Source: Candidatus Obscuribacteraceae bacterium
GTDB lineage: Bacteria > Cyanobacteriota > Vampirovibrionia > Obscuribacterales > Obscuribacteraceae
DNA length: 64,000 bases
Direction of reading: 5' to 3'
NCBI GenBank assembly: GCA_044226015.1
Contig: JBGAHS010000002.1
Location: 369,570 to 433,569, forward strand
The position numbers and the translations under genes were made by a program. The notes under the pieces are model-generated. The model saw nothing but the letters and a program-made list of their open reading frames with translations, ran no database searches and was not told the DNA's origin. Within the stretch, counting starts at the first letter, position 1; each line of letters opens with the position of its first letter. Shown here in pieces: positions 29,318 to 37,490 of this stretch.

Positions 29318-29755
29318 CTAACTTGCTCTTGTAAGAGATTTTGGGGCAGCGCTTTTTGCTGGCACCAAAGATTGCACTCGAGCCGGCACAGCTGAGTATA
29401 TGGCGTTTCCGCAGGAGGCAGCAGAAAATAATGCAGCTCTAGTAATTTTGAGAATGTCGATAACTCGATTAATCACAATCGAATCGTACTGAGTGTGATC
29501 ATCAATAAGCACACCGTCAACGCCTTCCTGTTCCGCAAAATGCGCAACTGCCGATTGCAAAGGCACAGTAAGCGGTTCTGACCAATGCACAACTTGAACT
29601 TGATTAGAATAGCTTTTCAGCCATTTCTGCATTTTTTTCTTGTCTTCTGCACTATAAACAAGTGCAATTAGCTTCAACTTTTTCATTTCAAATACAACCA
29701 TAAATTCATATCCAATTCTTCGCAATTTTGCAATTCTCGAAAGACGATCTGCCAT
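29318..29755 (-). CDS. Hypothetical protein translationally coupled to argH
   Basis: TAATG stop/start overlap with argH; 145 aa with alpha/beta pattern. Confidence 0.6.
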   Translation of the reverse strand: MADRLSRIAKLRRIGYEFMVVFEMKKLKLIALVYSAEDKKKMQKWLKSYSNQVQVVHWSEPLTVPLQSAVAHFAEQEGVDGVLIDDHTQYDSIVINRVIDILKITRAALFSAASCGNAIYSAVPARVQSLVPAKSAAPKSLTRAS

Positions 29756-31146
29756 TAGCTACAAACATCAGAATTCAATTGCAGCTGGTTCTTGCATTTA
29801 GCAAGCGCAGAAATTACACAATCCTTCCCGGTGCTTCCTGGGGATTGCTTGCTCGACACTGAAAGATGAGGATCAAACAAATCGAACACGTCGTTCTCGA
29901 ACTTATCGGAAAACTGCTTGAACTCCGACAGAGACAGATCACTCAGGGCTTTTGAATTTTCCCTGCTGTAGTTTACGAGTTCAGAAACCGCCTCGTGAGC
30001 GACTCGGAATGCAACACCAGCTTTCACCAGGTATTCTGCAATATCCGTAGCCGCAAGAAAGGGATCCATTGCTGCCTTTTCCATCGTGGCTTTCTGAACA
30101 TTCATTGAATTTATGACTACAACCATAACTTTCAATGACCCTAGAAGGGTGCTTGCTGCATCAATCACCGTGGGTTTTACTTCCTGGAGGTCTCTGTTGT
30201 AGCCGAGGGGAAGTGCCTTCAACGTTATCAATGCATTTACTAGATTTCCGATGATCGAACCTGTTTTTCCTCGAACCAATTCAACCGGGTCGGGGTTCTT
30301 TTTGTTAGGCATCAAGCTCGAAGCAGTAGTTACATTATCGTTAAAACCAACGAAGGAAAACTCTGAACTCGCCCAAATTATCAGTGTTTCGGCAAGCTGC
30401 GAAAGATGGGTTGAAGTGATGCATGCTGCAGAAAGAAACTCAAGTGCGAAGTCACGATCGCTGACCGCATCAAGTGAATTCTTGAATTCTTCGCTGAAAC
30501 CTAGCAATGAAGAGGTCAAGCTGGGAATCACCGGCAAGGCGGTTCCAGCAAGCGCTGCCGCACCTAATGGCGACACAGATACTCTTTTTTTGCAATCATT
30601 GAACCGGTCAAAATCTCTGTTCAACATCTCAATGAATGCGTGCATTGCATGCGAAAAGAGAACTGGCTGAGCGCGCTGCAAATGTGTGTATCCCGGCATC
30701 ACAGCATCAATATTCTCTTGAGCGCAATTCAGCAGAGCTGTTTGAAGTGAAACAATTTGTTTTTTCACCTCAGCTATCTTGCTGGCAGTATAGAGCCTGG
30801 TATCGAGAGCGACCTGGTCGTTCCGACTTCTAGCCGTATGCAGCCTAGCAGCGGCTGAACCAATTTTTGCTTCTAACTGTTTCTCGACGTTCATATGCAC
30901 GTCTTCATACTCTGCAATTAGTTGCAATTTGCCAGAAGAATATTCGAGAGCAAGCTCTTTCAATCCCGAAGAAATTGCTTCGAATTCTTCAGTAGTTATC
31001 AGTCCTGCTTCACTGAGCATTTCAGCATGCGCCAGACTGCCTTTGATGTCTGATTGAATCAATTCAATGTCAGCATCAATAGAGTTGACAAACTGCGAGA
31101 CTGCAGAATCAAGCTCCTGCTTGAACGCTTTTCTTAATACTTTCAT
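29755..31146 (-). CDS. argH: Argininosuccinate lyase
   Basis: EDVHMNVE, LHTARSRNDQV, PGYTHLQRAQP, SSLMPNKKNPD, YNRDLQE; GGAG RBS before ATG 31146. Confidence 0.97.
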   Translation of the reverse strand: MKVLRKAFKQELDSAVSQFVNSIDADIELIQSDIKGSLAHAEMLSEAGLITTEEFEAISSGLKELALEYSSGKLQLIAEYEDVHMNVEKQLEAKIGSAAARLHTARSRNDQVALDTRLYTASKIAEVKKQIVSLQTALLNCAQENIDAVMPGYTHLQRAQPVLFSHAMHAFIEMLNRDFDRFNDCKKRVSVSPLGAAALAGTALPVIPSLTSSLLGFSEEFKNSLDAVSDRDFALEFLSAACITSTHLSQLAETLIIWASSEFSFVGFNDNVTTASSLMPNKKNPDPVELVRGKTGSIIGNLVNALITLKALPLGYNRDLQEVKPTVIDAASTLLGSLKVMVVVINSMNVQKATMEKAAMDPFLAATDIAEYLVKAGVAFRVAHEAVSELVNYSRENSKALSDLSLSEFKQFSDKFENDVFDLFDPHLSVSSKQSPGSTGKDCVISALAKCKNQLQLNSDVCS

Positions 31147-32329
31147 GGGTCTTGCTCCAATTTGATAGTCTGATTGCATTGATGTTGATAAAACCGCCTG
31201 AGTCAGCAGGCGAGAAAGCCGTCATATCATCGAAGCTCGAGAGTTTATGAGCGTATAGAGATTTCTCAGCCTTTCTTCCAACAACTGAAGAATGCCCTTT
31301 GTAGAGTTTCACTTTGGCAGTTCCAGTCACGGGTGCTTGTATCTCATTTATTGTTGCTTTGAGAATTTTTGCTTCCGGAGCAAACCAATATCCGTTATAT
31401 ACAAGTGAAGCGAACTTGAGAGCAAGCTCTTGCGCCCAATGCGCTACTTCCTTGTCTAGAGTCAGTGACTCAACAGCCTGATGAGCTTGCATCAAGACCG
31501 TTACGCCAGGTGTCTCATACACGCCCCTGGACTTGATACCGATATACCGGTTCTCGACCAGATCAACTCTGCCTACGCCGTGTTCAGCAGCAATCTTGTT
31601 CATGCTTTCGACAAGAGTTAACGCATCCATTTTCTTGCCGTTGATGGCAACAGGAATGCCGCATTCAAAATCAATGCTTACGGTTTCTGCCTTGTCTGGA
31701 GCGTTTTCCGGTGAATTGGTCCAGAGGTAAATGTCCTCTGGAGCCTCTGCCCATGGATCTTCCAAAATGCCACCCTCATAACTGATGTGCATCAAGTTCG
31801 CATCCATAGAGTAGGGCTTGTCCTTACTTATAGGAAGAGGTATGCCATGCTTTTCAGCGTAGTCGAAGAGGTCTTGCCTGCCATTGAAGGACCAAGATCT
31901 CCAGGGAGCTATAATCTCAAGTTGTGGTGCAAGTGACTTCACCGCAAACTCGAATCGCACCTGATCATTGCCCTTCCCCGTAGCACCATGAGCAATGGCA
32001 TCACAGCCTTCTTTCAAAGCAGCTTCAACCATTCCTGCAGCGATACAAGGTCTTGCAAGAGATGTGCCCATCAAATATACAGACTCATAGAACGCATCGG
32101 CTTTGATTGACTCGAAAATAAACTCTTCGACGAATTGTTTTTTCAAATCAGCTACGATGCACTTTTCAGCGCCAGTAGCCAGAGCTTTGACTTTTACAGC
32201 CTCAAAATCCTCTTTCTGCCCTACATCGGCACAATAAGCGACCACGGGTACGTTGTAGGTTTCTTTCAACCAGGTCAAAATCACTGAGGTATCAAGACCA
32301 CCGCTATATGCTAACAATATTTTTTTCAT
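31109..32329 (-). CDS. argG: Argininosuccinate synthase
   Basis: LAYSGGLDTS, HGATGKGNDQVRF, SYEGG, SRGVYETP. Confidence 0.98.
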   Translation of the reverse strand: MKKILLAYSGGLDTSVILTWLKETYNVPVVAYCADVGQKEDFEAVKVKALATGAEKCIVADLKKQFVEEFIFESIKADAFYESVYLMGTSLARPCIAAGMVEAALKEGCDAIAHGATGKGNDQVRFEFAVKSLAPQLEIIAPWRSWSFNGRQDLFDYAEKHGIPLPISKDKPYSMDANLMHISYEGGILEDPWAEAPEDIYLWTNSPENAPDKAETVSIDFECGIPVAINGKKMDALTLVESMNKIAAEHGVGRVDLVENRYIGIKSRGVYETPGVTVLMQAHQAVESLTLDKEVAHWAQELALKFASLVYNGYWFAPEAKILKATINEIQAPVTGTAKVKLYKGHSSVVGRKAEKSLYAHKLSSFDDMTAFSPADSGGFININAIRLSNWSKTHESIKKSVQAGA

Positions 32330-32381: not shown

Positions 32382-33410
32382 TTAGAGAACAAGCGCGAGA
32401 ATAGCTTTCTGTGCGTGCAGCCGATTTTCTGCTTGATCAAACACCACTGACTGCGGTCCATCAATAACTTCATCGGTAATTTCATAGCCTCGGTGAGCTG
32501 GAAGGCAGTGCATCACGATGGCTGCGGGAAAGGACTTTTTCAGTAACTCCGCATTGACTTGGAAATCAGCAAAAGCTTTGATTTTGGAGCTTGCTTCGGC
32601 TTCCTGCCCCATTGATACCCATGTGTCTGTGTAGATTACATCAGCATCAGCAGCGGCCTCAGCTGCGTCGTGCGTCAGAGTTAGCTTTCCGCCCCAACTT
32701 GCGGCTTCGGCTAGCGTCTGCTCCCATATGGCGGGGTCTGGCATGTACTGCTCTGGGCAAGCAATAACGCATTCGGCACCAAATTTGGTAGCAGCCAGAA
32801 ACAAAGAGTTTGATACATTATTTGGATCACCGATATACGCAATTTTAAGTCCCTCCAGGCAATCAAAGTGCTCAATTATGGTCAAGAGATCCGCAAGTGC
32901 CTGGCAAGGATGTTCGGCATCGCTCAAGCCATTAATTACTGGGATTTTTGCATTCTCTGCCAGCTTTTCAACGGTTTCCTGCAAGAAGGTTCTTGCCATA
33001 ATTCCGCTGACCCATCTTTCCAGGTTATGTGCAACATCAGCTATAGACTCTCTCACGCCGAGAGGACCATCCAAAAATATTGCATGACCGCCAAGCTGCT
33101 TCATACCGAGGTCAAAAGTGACTCTAGTTCTTAACGATGGCTTTTCAAAAAGCATAGCGAGTGACTTATTTTTGCACAGAAGTGATTGCGCATCATCATT
33201 GACGTGCTGCTTCAAGAGAGCAGCAGTATCCAGGAGAAGCTGAATCTCGGCTTTGCTCAGCCCCTCTATGCCCAGAATATCTTTTCCGCGCAGCGAGTCT
33301 TCATCCAGGATTTTTAGAAGCGGCGAGATTACAGCTGCTTTCAATACAGCTTCCTTCGCTGGGCTCTTAGCCTTGTGATTCTGAACCTTTGCTGCGGATT
33401 TCATTTTCAT
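32382..33410 (-). CDS. argF: Ornithine carbamoyltransferase
   Basis: FEKPSLRTR, HPCQALAD, YTDTWVSMG, HCLP, DQAENR. Confidence 0.97.
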   Translation of the reverse strand: MKMKSAAKVQNHKAKSPAKEAVLKAAVISPLLKILDEDSLRGKDILGIEGLSKAEIQLLLDTAALLKQHVNDDAQSLLCKNKSLAMLFEKPSLRTRVTFDLGMKQLGGHAIFLDGPLGVRESIADVAHNLERWVSGIMARTFLQETVEKLAENAKIPVINGLSDAEHPCQALADLLTIIEHFDCLEGLKIAYIGDPNNVSNSLFLAATKFGAECVIACPEQYMPDPAIWEQTLAEAASWGGKLTLTHDAAEAAADADVIYTDTWVSMGQEAEASSKIKAFADFQVNAELLKKSFPAAIVMHCLPAHRGYEITDEVIDGPQSVVFDQAENRLHAQKAILALVL

Positions 33411-33451
33411 TCTCCAGTCATTCGAATTTGTACTTGTTTGAATTTAGATTT

Positions 33452-33524
33452 CACACCCCGCAGGAGTTGAACCTGCAACCTTCGGTTCCGTAGACCGTCG
33501 CTCTATCCATTGAGCTAGGAGTGT
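33452..33524 (-). tRNA. tRNA-Arg (anticodon ACG), CCA not encoded
   Basis: Minus strand ACACTCCTAGCTCAATGGATAGAGCGACGGTCT-ACG-GAACCGAAGGTTGCAGGTTCAACTCCTGCGGGGTGTG folds as a cloverleaf: acceptor ACACTCC/GGGGTGT, D arm GCTC/GAGC, T arm GCAGG-TTCAACT-CCTGC. Confidence 0.95.
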
Positions 33525-33530
33525 ATAAAC

Positions 33531-33564: not shown

Positions 33565-34473
33565 TTAAAGCTTCTTGTTGAATATTTGACAATCAGAGCC
33601 AGTCTTGCAGGAAATGGTTGTTCCGATTGTTTGTGTTGTTATAGCTTTGAGCAAGGCGTGTTCGGTATGTCCGTCAATAATTTGTGCAGCAGAAATCCCC
33701 ATATTCACTGCATCTATACAGCTTTTGATTTTCGGAAGCATTCCACCTTTGATGGTACCATCGGCGATTTTGGCTTCAGCTTCGTCAACGTTCAGGTTTT
33801 TGATCAAAGTATTCTTCTCCGAAATGTCCTCAAGAACACCAGGAACATCGGTGATATTGATCAGCTTGGTAGCGCCAATTGCAGCAGCTAATTCCAGAGC
33901 TGCCGTATCGGCATTGATATTCAATACGCTGCCCGTTTCATTAAGAGCAAGCGGAGCAATCACGGGCACGGCGCCTTTCAAGAATGCTTCTTTTATTTTC
34001 GCAACGTTCACGCCGTTGACTTTACCAACGAAACCGAGGTCAAGTTCCTTTCCTGATGCATCGCTTGCGGTAAGCTTGCTAGCCGAGAAAATGGCGCTGG
34101 TATTTGGTATGAATTCTGTGGCGAAAACAGTTGATTCAAGCGGGACATAGCCAACGGCAGGAACCGAAACCAGCGAAATCTTCTCAACAATAAGCTGGTT
34201 AATTTCCGTAAGTTCTTCAACAACAATCTGTAGGGTTTCTTTATCAGTGACTCTGAGTCCTTGAATTTTGACAGGAACCTTGTTGAGCGCTGCAAGCTTC
34301 TGGTCAATGGCGGGACCACCGCCATGAACGATTGCCAGAGAGAGACCAGCTTTCACTAGCTCTTTTGCATCTGCAAGCAAATTTTCTAGCAGCCCTTCAG
34401 TTTCGATGACGCTGCCACCAATTTTGACGACTACGATTGTTCCAGTAAGATTGATTGTCTCGGCGGTATTCAT
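33565..34473 (-). CDS. argB: Acetylglutamate kinase
   Basis: VVKIGGS, VHGGG, GLRVTD, LGFVG, NINAD, GGMLPK. Confidence 0.96.
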   Translation of the reverse strand: MNTAETINLTGTIVVVKIGGSVIETEGLLENLLADAKELVKAGLSLAIVHGGGPAIDQKLAALNKVPVKIQGLRVTDKETLQIVVEELTEINQLIVEKISLVSVPAVGYVPLESTVFATEFIPNTSAIFSASKLTASDASGKELDLGFVGKVNGVNVAKIKEAFLKGAVPVIAPLALNETGSVLNINADTAALELAAAIGATKLINITDVPGVLEDISEKNTLIKNLNVDEAEAKIADGTIKGGMLPKIKSCIDAVNMGISAAQIIDGHTEHALLKAITTQTIGTTISCKTGSDCQIFNKKL

Positions 34474-34587: not shown

Positions 34588-35811
34588 CTATGTACGATAA
34601 GCTCCATTGATTCTTACGTAATCGTAAGAGAGGTCACAGCCCCAGGCTGTTGCCTTAGAAAGTCCATCATGCAAATCAATCAATACTTGAATGTTTGATT
34701 TCTTCATCACTTTAAGTGCATGCGATTCATCGAACTTGCAGGGCTCACCGCCTTTGAGAAGCGGCACCACATTACCACTACTTGAAAGCGCAACAGAGAC
34801 CTTTGCGGGGTCGAACCAGACACCGCCATAGCCCAGAGCTGCGACAATTCTGCCCCAGTTTGCGTCTTCACCAAACATCGCTGTCTTCACCAGGTTAGAT
34901 GAAACAACAGATTTTGAGAGCTTGGAAGCATCTTCAAATGACTTGCTTCCCTTTACAGTGACAGCTAAAAGTTTGGTAGCACCTTCGCCATCTTTTGCAA
35001 TGCATTTTGCAAGAAAGACGTTGATAGCGCCAAGTGCTTTCACAAACAATTTCCATTCTTTGCTGCCTTCAACTACTGGTGCAGTTTCAGCAGCGCCATT
35101 AGCCATGATTGCCACCATGTCGTTTGTGCTCGTGTCACCATCAACTGAAATCATGTTGTAGGTTTTTTGCACGCTAACAATCAATGCCTTTTTCAAAAGT
35201 TCCTTTGAAATGTTTAGATCTGTGAGAATGAAAGAGAGCATGGTCGCCATGTTGGGATGAATCATTCCCGAGCCCTTTGCCATAGCAGCTATGGTCACGA
35301 CCTTCTCTCCAACATTGAACTCCACAGAACAATGCTTGATAAAAGTATCGGTCGTCATAATTGCGGTTGCTGCGTTCACACCGGCTTCATCGCTATGAGC
35401 AATTTTTGGTGCCAGGAATTCAATGCCGGCTTCGACTTTCTCGATGGGCATCGGAACACCTATAACACCTGTCGACGCGATGAGAATCTCGCCGGGGTCG
35501 GCGTTGAGGCAAGCAGCGGTTTTTGTAGCCATTCTCCAGGTGTGTTCAACGCCCGTCGCACCGGTACATGAATTAGCGTTTCCACTATTGATGACAATCG
35601 CTTTGATCTTCTTTCCGCTAGCGTCAACCTTTTGGTTCCACATAATTGGAGCAGCTTTAACAACATTCGTTGTGAGAGCGACAGCAAAATCAGCCGGAAC
35701 ATCGCTGACGATAAGCGCGAGGTCCTTTCTTTTTCTCTTCAAACCAACGTGCTCTCCAGCAGCCTGGAAGCCCTTTGGCATTTGAAACTCTTTTGAAACT
35801 TTCACTGTCAT
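34588..35811 (-). CDS. argJ: Ornithine acetyltransferase / N-acetylglutamate synthase
   Basis: NSGNANSCTG, STGVIG, IMTTDT, KGSGMIHPNMATML, DGDTSTND, DGEGATK; ATG 35811 has GGAG 9 nt upstream (the track's 35889 start runs through the attenuator). Confidence 0.96.
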   Translation of the reverse strand: MTVKVSKEFQMPKGFQAAGEHVGLKRKRKDLALIVSDVPADFAVALTTNVVKAAPIMWNQKVDASGKKIKAIVINSGNANSCTGATGVEHTWRMATKTAACLNADPGEILIASTGVIGVPMPIEKVEAGIEFLAPKIAHSDEAGVNAATAIMTTDTFIKHCSVEFNVGEKVVTIAAMAKGSGMIHPNMATMLSFILTDLNISKELLKKALIVSVQKTYNMISVDGDTSTNDMVAIMANGAAETAPVVEGSKEWKLFVKALGAINVFLAKCIAKDGEGATKLLAVTVKGSKSFEDASKLSKSVVSSNLVKTAMFGEDANWGRIVAALGYGGVWFDPAKVSVALSSSGNVVPLLKGGEPCKFDESHALKVMKKSNIQVLIDLHDGLSKATAWGCDLSYDYVRINGAYRT

Positions 35812-35838
35812 CACCCGCATCTCCAAAAGTTCAGAAAT

Positions 35839-35867
35839 AAAAAACCCCGATCCTTCTGGACTCGGGG
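35839..35867 (-). terminator. Attenuator terminator upstream of argJ
   Basis: CCCCGAGUCC-AGAA-GGAUCGGGG followed by UUUUUU on the minus strand. Confidence 0.85.
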
Positions 35868-35893
35868 CTGGAATGCGTAAATGATGCAAGCCT

Positions 35894-35968
35894 TTATTGC
35901 CCCGAGTCCTTCATACGAACGCGGCGGCTACGGCGGTTTGTGTTGGCGATGTAACTAACAGATTTCAT
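35894..35968 (-). CDS. Arg-rich leader peptide MKSVSYIANTNRRSRRVRMKDSGQ
   Basis: ATG 35968 to TAA 35894; codons CGC CGT AGC CGC CGC GTT CGT; 3' codons are complementary (11 bp) to the terminator's left arm. Confidence 0.85.
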   Translation of the reverse strand: MKSVSYIANTNRRSRRVRMKDSGQ

Positions 35969-35999
35969 TTTTTGTGCCCACACTGACAAGATGAATTAA

Positions 36000-36029
36000 A
36001 CCATACACCTTGGAAATCGGATCCGTCAA
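36000..36029 (-). promoter_or_regulatory. Putative sigma-70 promoter of the arg leader
   Basis: TTGACG-18 nt-TATGGT, about 30 nt upstream of the leader ATG. Confidence 0.5.
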
Positions 36030-36395
36030 CAAGATTTACTTTCGCTCATCAAAATGCGCAACATTTATTTTCGCATGCGCTTCACCGTGTGCACCCGGAG
36101 CGGGGCGGGTGACTGAGTCGAGTTTATCGTAGTTACCCATCGGCTCGTACAAGGATGAGCAAGGAGTACGAGGGACAGCTGCAAACAGGGAGCAAGGCTA
36201 CAGGCAAGATCGAAGAGCTCAGGCAAGTGATAAGTTCCATAGACGAGAGCAATGACTCCGAACAAACTGCAGCTACAAGCACAACGGTGGATCTAATTGA
36301 CGAGAAGCCAGCTTGCAGATGGGAATAGACTGATTATCAGTAAATTAGATGCACCGAATTGATGACAACACATTTCAAAAAAAACTTGCTATCTT

Positions 36396-37490
36396 TTGAG
36401 CACTAATTCGGATGGAATCAAAGTGAAGAGTTCTGAAAAACTGAGGATTGGAATCGTCGGAGCGACCGGCTACACAGGCGTGGAGCTACTCCGTTTATTG
36501 TCCAGACATCCTCACGTGAGTATAGAAGGATTGACTACCCGTACGGCAGCAGGCAAAGAAATTGCTCATATATTCCCTTCGCTGAAAAAAGTTTGTTCAA
36601 CGACATGCTCAGATGAGAGTCTTGATGAGCTAAGTAAGAGAACAGACCTTGTATTCATAGCCCTTCCACATGGCGAAGCAGCCAATATGGTGACTTCGGA
36701 CATACTAAACCGCTGCAAAATAATTGACCTCGGTGCTGACTTCAGGCTTGAGGATCCCTTAGATTACAAAAAGTGGTATCACTTAGACCATCCGAATCCA
36801 CTCATGATCACCGAGGCAGTATACGGCTTGCCAGAGTTCAATAGGGAGAAGATTCGCAATGCACGATTGATTGCTAACCCAGGTTGCTATGCGACGTGCA
36901 GTATTCTATCTCTTGCTCCGCTTCTAAAAAATTCCCTGATCGATGAAGACTCGATCATAGTAGATGCAAAATCTGGTGTTTCAGGAGCTGGAAGAGGACT
37001 TTCGCTGGTATCACATTTCAATGAGTGTAATGAAAGCTTCAAGGCATATGCTGTAGCATCACACCGACACACGCCTGAGATAGAGCAAGCTTTGAAACAA
37101 GAAACAGGAGTAGCTACTACGCTAAGTTTCACACCGCATTTAGTGCCAATGGATCGAGGCATTCTAGTGACGGCATATGCAAAACTGAGAAAAGGAATTC
37201 GATTCGAGGAATTGCAAGAGGCTTATGCAGATTCATATAGAGATGAGCATTTCATCCGCATTTATGACAGCGCCGCAGAGCCGACTGTGCTGCCCGAAAC
37301 AAGATGGGTGAGAGGAAGTAATTTTTGTGACATCTTCTACAAAATAGATGAACGCACTAATCGTGTAATAGTAGTTGCTACTATAGACAACTTGGTAAAA
37401 GGAGCAGCTGGTCAAGCGATTCAAAACATGAATTTGATGAGTTCTTTTGATGAGAGACTGGCGTTGGAAGAAGCGGGATTTTTTCCATAA
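36396..37490 (+). CDS. argC: N-acetyl-gamma-glutamyl-phosphate reductase
   Basis: GATGYTG, ALPHG, DLGADFRL, IANPGCY, KSGVSGAG, HRHTPEI, DNLVKGAAGQA; start may be GTG 36423. Confidence 0.97.
   Translation: MSTNSDGIKVKSSEKLRIGIVGATGYTGVELLRLLSRHPHVSIEGLTTRTAAGKEIAHIFPSLKKVCSTTCSDESLDELSKRTDLVFIALPHGEAANMVTSDILNRCKIIDLGADFRLEDPLDYKKWYHLDHPNPLMITEAVYGLPEFNREKIRNARLIANPGCYATCSILSLAPLLKNSLIDEDSIIVDAKSGVSGAGRGLSLVSHFNECNESFKAYAVASHRHTPEIEQALKQETGVATTLSFTPHLVPMDRGILVTAYAKLRKGIRFEELQEAYADSYRDEHFIRIYDSAAEPTVLPETRWVRGSNFCDIFYKIDERTNRVIVVATIDNLVKGAAGQAIQNMNLMSSFDERLALEEAGFFP

Follow-up and report, generated by a model that had tools for sequence, protein, structure and literature searches.

A candidate arginine-codon transcription attenuator upstream of the argJ operon in Candidatus Obscuribacteraceae and its alternation with ArgR

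Leader-peptide attenuation is a textbook mode of control for Trp, His, Phe, Thr, Leu and Ile/Val, and arginine synthesis is the textbook domain of a repressor (ArgR). The mechanism of the classical attenuators (trpL, hisL, pheL, leuL, thrL and ilvGL/ivbL) has been summarised elsewhere (PMC2659441). The leader described here lies in a 64,000-nucleotide stretch of DNA from a Candidatus Obscuribacteraceae bacterium (the window; positions are counted from its first letter). It resembles the classical attenuators in having a short ORF in which codons for the end product abound, a predicted protector, an antiterminator and an intrinsic terminator, in the read-through that is predicted upon ribosome stalling, and in its position before a biosynthetic operon. 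It departs from them in using Arg codons, in targeting arg genes and in matching no Rfam family, and also in that several Arg leaders can occur per genome, keeping to the arg operon heads and alternating with ArgR in the family. The type of mechanism is old; its use with this amino acid and on these operons is new, and so is the way in which it alternates with ArgR. No Arg-codon attenuator acting on arg genes was found among the full-text literature matches listed, and we use the word undescribed provisionally.

Several described systems share part of this design. In Salmonella, orf34/speFL upstream of speF senses arginine through ribosome pausing at consecutive Arg codons (PMC6386406, PMC12360218). 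Like the window leader it is a bacterial upstream ORF with consecutive Arg codons, and low arginine raises downstream expression there; however, according to the same sources its target is an ornithine decarboxylase, it works through Rho, RNase G and access to the RBS rather than through an intrinsic terminator and antiterminator, and it has a conserved peptide core and senses ornithine too. The Staphylococcus aureus leader peptide rbfL is reported to sense arginine via tRNA-Arg charging (PMC13009471), as we propose below, but with rare AGA/AGG codons, by acting on translation initiation via RBS occlusion, with limitation leading to repression, and with a biofilm regulator as its target. The fungal arginine attenuator peptide (arg-2/CPA1) is likewise described as an upstream ORF that controls an arginine-synthesis gene by ribosome stalling (PMC11550727), although it is eukaryotic, responds to free arginine via a conserved nascent peptide, stalls at high arginine and is translational. 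Arginine genes are listed under T-box control in PMC1262725, which reports no arg leader in Actinobacteria; the same source describes a Streptomyces ilvB look-alike leader in which mutation of the control codons gave no response, a precedent that counts against the attenuator reading. ArgR/AhrC and arginine T-boxes act on the same target genes and answer to the same physiological signal as the window leader, and T-boxes, too, read tRNA charging and use a terminator and an antiterminator. Here, in contrast, neither an ArgR domain (in the genome) nor a T-box match (in the window) was found, and the sensor would be the translating ribosome.

The operon lies on the minus strand in the gene order argJ-argB-argF-argG-argH, as expected from the original prediction and as borne out by profile matches, all of them above cut-off. 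argJ (34588..35824; TIGR00120) starts at ATG 35811 or GTG 35814 behind a GGAG RBS at 35824-35821, and is followed by argB (acetylglutamate kinase, 33565..34473; TIGR00761), argF (ornithine carbamoyltransferase, 32382..33410; TIGR00658), argG (argininosuccinate synthase, 31109..32329; TIGR00032) and argH (argininosuccinate lyase, 29755..31179; TIGR00838). argC (36396..37490, plus strand; TIGR01850, above cut-off) is divergent from the argJ operon. One of the genome's three tRNA-Arg(ACG) genes (33451..33525, minus strand) sits inside the operon between argB and argF and is preceded by a GC-rich hairpin. This gene and the promoter-like site described below were absent from the original prediction. 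A tRNA-Arg gene occurs in the operon, at an unchanged place, in two genomes (the window's, G000, and G002) and is missing from it in G006, G007 and the other scanned loci; it is not general and therefore dispensable for the mechanism. At the other end of the operon, a 145-aa ORF (29318-29755, minus strand), the start of which overlaps the argH stop, had no NCBIfam match at 1e-10.

Upstream of argJ, a leader ORF of 24 codons plus TAA (35894..35968, minus strand), with homologous ORFs of 24-41 codons in relatives, carries five Arg codons among seven (35915..35935): Arg12, 13, 15, 16 and 18, encoded by CGC, CGT, CGC, CGC and CGT. The ORF and its Arg cluster are as originally predicted, and all the coordinates given at that time agree with the minus-strand sequence. 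A sigma-70-type promoter-like site (TTGACG-18-TATGGT, 36000..36029, minus strand; 9/12 consensus matches) stands 32 nt upstream of the leader ATG and would place the transcription start near 35993. A single site of this kind in the stretch searched is about what chance gives (0.8 expected); across the family, the pattern occurs with the same spacing above 57 of the 71 leaders with enough flank, vs 0.8% in shuffles. No strong Shine-Dalgarno site was found before the window leader ORF (-2.6 vs -6.4 kcal/mol for argJ).

Three alternative helices can be drawn on the minus strand. Folding and alignment place segment 2 (35899..35909), the 5' arm of the antiterminator, within the leader ORF, and make segment 3 (35858..35868) common to the antiterminator (2:3) and the terminator (3:4). 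The perfect 11-bp antiterminator between segments 2 (35909-35899) and 3 (35868-35858) is present in the sequence as predicted, and the whole 2:3 hairpin folds at -27.6 kcal/mol. The intrinsic terminator (35839..35867), seen by folding and covariation, consists of a stem-loop at 35867-35845 and a U6 tract at 35844-35839 directly before the argJ RBS; its 9-bp stem carries one bulged G and closes a loop of 4 nt (-15.6 kcal/mol), and because of this bulge a simple terminator scan overlooked it, finding none. Less tidy is the protector, in which segment 1 (35917..35928) is predicted to pair with segment 2: it does start at 35928 and fold in the early transcript, but the helix is imperfect, with one bulge and one mismatch. 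Among 36 leaders, folding gives the protector an early pairing above 0.5 in every one, although its predicted partner varies among lineages. Leaving aside conservation of the protector helix, which is a prediction, every computable feature of an attenuator is present: a leader ORF below a promoter-like site, a cluster of end-product codons, a terminator before argJ, a mutually exclusive antiterminator and, in simulations of the window RNA, control codons at positions where a stall, but not continued translation, would free segment 2. Taken alone, the leader region is not striking: a 201-nt region folds no better than its shuffles (z -1.21), and the evidence that rises above chance is comparative. 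A T-box riboswitch or another Rfam leader family was also considered and rejected, as a covariance-model scan of the window returned only tRNA at gathering score, with no leader family and no T-box match.

We consider it likely that this leader acts as a classical ribosome-dependent transcription attenuator that senses Arg-tRNA charging before argJ-argB-tRNA(Arg)-argF-argG-argH. RNA polymerase would start near 35993, with a coupled ribosome translating the leader. Given ample Arg-tRNA, the ribosome would reach codon 18 and beyond and cover segment 2, or 1:2 would re-form after its release; 3:4 would then form and transcription would stop near 35839. Given scarce Arg-tRNA, the ribosome would stall on Arg12-Arg16 with segment 1 covered and segment 2 free, 2:3 would form ahead of the synthesis of segment 4, and the operon would be read.

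Folding predicts all the alternative structures of the original scheme (the early 1:2 as well as 2:3 and 3:4), and a ribosome footprint, blocked codon by codon in the window RNA with its 3' edge assumed at +9, +12 or +15, switches between 2:3 and 3:4. The probability of the antiterminator is 0.95-1.0 with the ribosome on Arg12-Arg15 and 0.71-1.0 on Arg16, and that of the terminator is 0.89-0.96 from codon 19 through the stop. The claim that a stall at the Arg codons frees segment 2 thus holds in simulation for Arg12-Arg16; Arg18 sits on the margin of the switching window or outside it, and the control codons are likely to be Arg12-Arg16.

In relatives the geometry is more varied. The 2:3 hairpin is stabler than the terminator in 36/36 leaders, and in RNA cut before segment 4 it forms under an Arg stall in all 36 and without a ribosome in 28. 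With a ribosome placed on the leader's stop in this cut RNA, 2:3 still exceeds 0.5 in 20/36, leaving 16/36 with the expected behaviour on the stop side (at equilibrium). This persistence comes about because the stop codon is 18-28 nt beyond the segment-2 core in 31/36 leaders; it is 10-13 nt beyond in the window genus and one neighbour. The claim that a ribosome at the stop covers segment 2 can be kept for the window genus and that neighbour and not for the other 31 leaders, where termination would therefore need a ribosome that passes segment 2 or a 1:2 helix that re-forms. In full-length RNA at equilibrium, an Arg stall favours the antiterminator in only 17/36, a count that includes 8 mis-anchored rows. 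We take from this that the switch in relatives would depend on timing beyond equilibrium calculations, and that it would be less clean than in the window.

Comparison across the family adds covariation to this picture. In a 28-row MAFFT alignment, with structures derived from the window sequence and controls that leave relatedness in, 91.4% of cells are paired in the terminator 3:4 (two-sided changes at 7/10 pairs) and 88.6% in the antiterminator 2:3 (two-sided changes at 5/11 pairs). None of 500 shuffles reached the pairing percentage or the covariation score of either helix, and slid registers gave at most 54%. In three leaders (L163, L221 and one of L171), segments 2, 3 and 4 have changed together. 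As the original prediction had anticipated for an alignment of relatives, the Arg-rich upstream ORF is conserved and both competing helices show compensatory changes. A TGTTGATTT-like stretch recurs near the leader stop codon in several genera (alignment A1, columns 78-90), often as a small hairpin in the antiterminator loop; it is absent from the window's genus.

Could the Arg codons simply be a by-product of a C/G-rich segment 1, below which a real terminator operates with a non-regulatory ORF and with read-through that either is constitutive or comes under the control of a protein or small RNA? The leader ribosome-binding site is indeed weak, the window RNA without a ribosome splits 0.57/0.41 between antiterminator and terminator, the protector partner overlaps the Arg codons in 30/36 leaders, and 314 of the 318 Arg codons in the control window are CGN (CGC 167, CGA 115, CGT 30, AGA 4, CGG 2); across the window's genome, AGA/AGG account for 32.5% of all Arg codons. 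The reading frame argues otherwise. A detector that uses the helices only, with no Arg requirement, returned 79 distinct leaders from the fetched family loci, a sample gathered around arg genes and with the Arg-leader model, so that the following counts are partly circular and kin are not independent. Taken over the 25 nt upstream of segment 2, the Arg-richest frame is both open and equipped with a start codon in 79/79 leaders (ATG in 70), vs 38/158 of the other frames. It averages 4.0 Arg, where the other frames average 0.5 and the best frame of shuffled sequences 1.9; at least three Arg are present in 76/79 leaders, and 318 of 654 control-window codons are Arg, vs 4.6% genome-wide. Moreover, the Arg frame is seen in each of the three possible registers (53/22/4), and since it shifts against the core yet stays Arg, Arg is kept as a codon and not as a by-product of the helix. 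The same bases in other frames would read Ala or Pro, third codon positions vary among CGC, CGA and CGT, and the leader before ilvD described below keeps the scaffold without the Arg cluster. We therefore hold the by-product explanation to be extremely unlikely.

If the ribosome does read this ORF, the signal could still be a free metabolite (arginine, ornithine or citrulline) that works on the nascent peptide inside the exit tunnel, in the manner of SpeFL, TnaC or AAP. Precedent exists in the stalling of ribosomes on speFL by ornithine (PMC12360218) and in the sensing of arginine by AAP via conserved residues (PMC11550727), and peptides of 24-41 aa would be long enough to fill the tunnel. Yet the leader peptides, judged by eye, diverge outside the Arg cluster and the codons forced by segment 2, and their lengths vary; stalling over segment 1 would, in addition, switch synthesis on when the product is abundant, which is the wrong sign unless the inducer is an intermediate. 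Sensing of a free metabolite therefore seems to us very unlikely, and membership in the class of metabolite-sensing arrest peptides was rejected, as conserved residues other than the control codons were not seen among the peptides judged by eye. The reading that we favour remains a ribosome that responds to the charging of Arg-tRNA.

The leader is widespread in the family. We built a covariance model on 28 leaders, which came from 26 genomes. It finds matches in 60 of 104 family genomes, including the 26 that supplied the training sequences. Among the first 13 family argJ loci, an Arg-rich ORF and a terminator stand directly before argJ in ten. In the remaining three argC abuts argJ; one of these carries its leader ahead of argF, where the operon begins, and the operon of the other two is headed by argR. 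We fetched 40 further matches that are not before argJ, and 34 of them have an Arg-rich ORF, 32 directly before argF, argG, argB or argC and two at contig ends; the other six are weak (E 2.9e-4 or worse) and lie upstream of non-arg genes, including ilvD and a DAHP synthase. Several genera have three leaders, before argC, argJ and argF/G, and the leader stays with the operon head through gene rearrangements. ArgJ itself has no match in 51 of the 104 family genomes, some of which have leaders only before argF/argG. The best named ArgJ relative among 80 loci, L067 (Candidatus Melainabacteria, 59% identity), has two leaders of the same type, and we take the family to be a member of that class.

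Individual loci depart from this pattern in various ways. At L230 (G067:C2:977972-978104), the same RNA scaffold carries an Ile/Val/Leu-rich leader before ilvD and looks like a codon-swapped sister attenuator. L223 and L225 (genus g18) have a 16-codon variant before argF, with the stop right after the Arg run, at segment 2. At L046 (G059:C34), the contig upstream of argJ starts with non-leader sequence, and the leader of that genome is on a different contig; the end of this sequence resembles what we take to be the 3' end of a group II intron.

Beyond the family, 151 genomes of the class gave no convincing match to the model, which would overlook unrelated leaders. Non-family class matches came from 14 genomes at E 7.5e-5 or worse, mostly to the terminator half only, and in the five of these genomes that were inspected no arg genes lay nearby. 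An outside scan covered 96 loci (79 named ones with argJ, mostly Bacillota, seven from the class and ten model or pattern matches), with 280 stretches upstream of genes in all. Six candidates combined an Arg-rich ORF with a hairpin, and of these we count one, a family-type leader (L256). A pattern search of metagenomes found five loci, one with a family-type leader before argJ and four with the pattern before a GNAT gene that stays below every ArgA cut-off. These four (L255, L257, L258 and L259) lie on GC-rich metagenome contigs, where a core and terminator of similar form stand ahead of the GNAT acetyltransferase; one frame is Val-rich and another Arg-rich.

The identity of the downstream genes bears on whether the leader might sense general translation stress or antibiotics (for example by macrolide stalling at Arg-x-Arg) and not arginine. 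Arg-Leu-Arg motifs are reported to mark antibiotic-responsive leaders (PMC8632094, the main text of which does not contain argJ, argC or argG). Arg-x-Arg is present in the window leader and in many relatives, and in 4/5 metagenome matches the acetyltransferase gene lies behind a scaffold of similar form, one frame of which has Arg codons. However, of the 40 family matches fetched, all 32 Arg leaders that have a gene downstream stand before arg genes and none before a resistance gene; the leader is absent exactly where argR heads the operon, and many leaders contain a plain RRRR run. Stress sensing thus has, in our judgement, scarcely any chance of being correct, and arginine, read through its charged tRNA, is to us the likely signal.

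How does the attenuator relate to the repressor? Neither the N- nor the C-terminal ArgR domain was found in the window's genome (92% complete), a result that extends to the whole genome the initial remark that the window holds no argR, and 35900-36420 of the window contains no palindrome resembling what we take to be the ARG-box consensus. Membership of the window operon in an ArgR regulon was rejected on these two grounds. Across the family, ArgR was found in 22 of 104 genomes. Within the 53 genomes that have ArgJ, the leader model matches 36/36 without ArgR and 4/17 with it. Where argR heads the operon the leader is present in 0/15, and an ARG-box-like palindrome occurs in 15/15 of these operons vs 1/79 leaders under a stricter pattern, which was picked after seeing the result of a loose one (15/15 vs 29/79). 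Seven genomes carry both ArgR and the leader; in the three of them for which both operons were mapped, argR stands in front of argG-argH, and the leader in front of argJ or argB. A quick ArgJ tree (37 rows) groups the 8 ArgR-only rows into a single clade (SH-aLRT 99) amid lineages that bear the leader, with a support of only 82 at the family node. From this tree we infer that the attenuator may be the older state in the family. The reciprocity between leader and ArgR may rest on few events. In this family the attenuator seems to substitute for the ArgR repressor at the level of single operons.

Within the window's genome the RNA model has a single match. No leader of the same kind was found upstream of the window argC, nor above three argD-like genes, carA, argS or hisG. 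A scan of the 8.19 Mb genome for a leader ORF with a terminator gave 33 candidates, and the downstream genes of 12 were annotated. Among them are Trp-, Tyr-, Phe- and Met-rich leaders with terminators ahead of genes of the matching pathway (trpE; a DAHP synthase with prephenate dehydrogenase; a second DAHP synthase; cystathionine gamma-synthase with aspartate kinase), and the organism appears to use leader-peptide control for several amino acids. The candidate Trp/Tyr/Phe attenuators (L054, L056 and L057; G000:C7:767146-767278, C9:286930-287073 and C10:285994-286102, all minus strand) sit before trpE and the two DAHP synthase genes and have similar-looking terminator stems. The candidate methionine attenuator (L055; G000:C7:258263-258457, minus strand) combines a leader ORF holding a run of four Met with a strong terminator, and the genes for cystathionine gamma-synthase and aspartate kinase follow. 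At E 1e-40, ilvD gave no match in this genome (92% complete).

A weak hint of transcription comes from one RNA library, in which a contig of 240 nt is identical to 35729-35968 and runs across the terminator into argJ. These data are assembled contigs of one study, from which strand, ends and level cannot be read. Cover is sparse in general: a 19.9-kb control stretch is nearly uncovered (4/30 bins), as are most of argJ and argC, and we draw no conclusion from the gaps over these two genes.

At roughly 130 nt the element is self-contained, and it could serve as a sensor of Arg-tRNA charging. If it works as proposed, it would add an amino acid to leader-peptide attenuation. We lean slightly towards a broader reading, in which Arg-codon attenuation would be a full second regulatory logic for bacterial arginine synthesis, undescribed so far and interchangeable with ArgR. 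In the family it would be the older state, duplicated to each arg operon head, dropped where argR and the ARG box took over, and tuned to the CGN-reading tRNA-Arg, the gene of which lies inside the attenuated operon in two genomes. A working attenuator would explain how genomes that lack ArgR can regulate arginine synthesis, and would provide a natural setting, within one family, in which to compare control by RNA with control by a repressor over the same genes.
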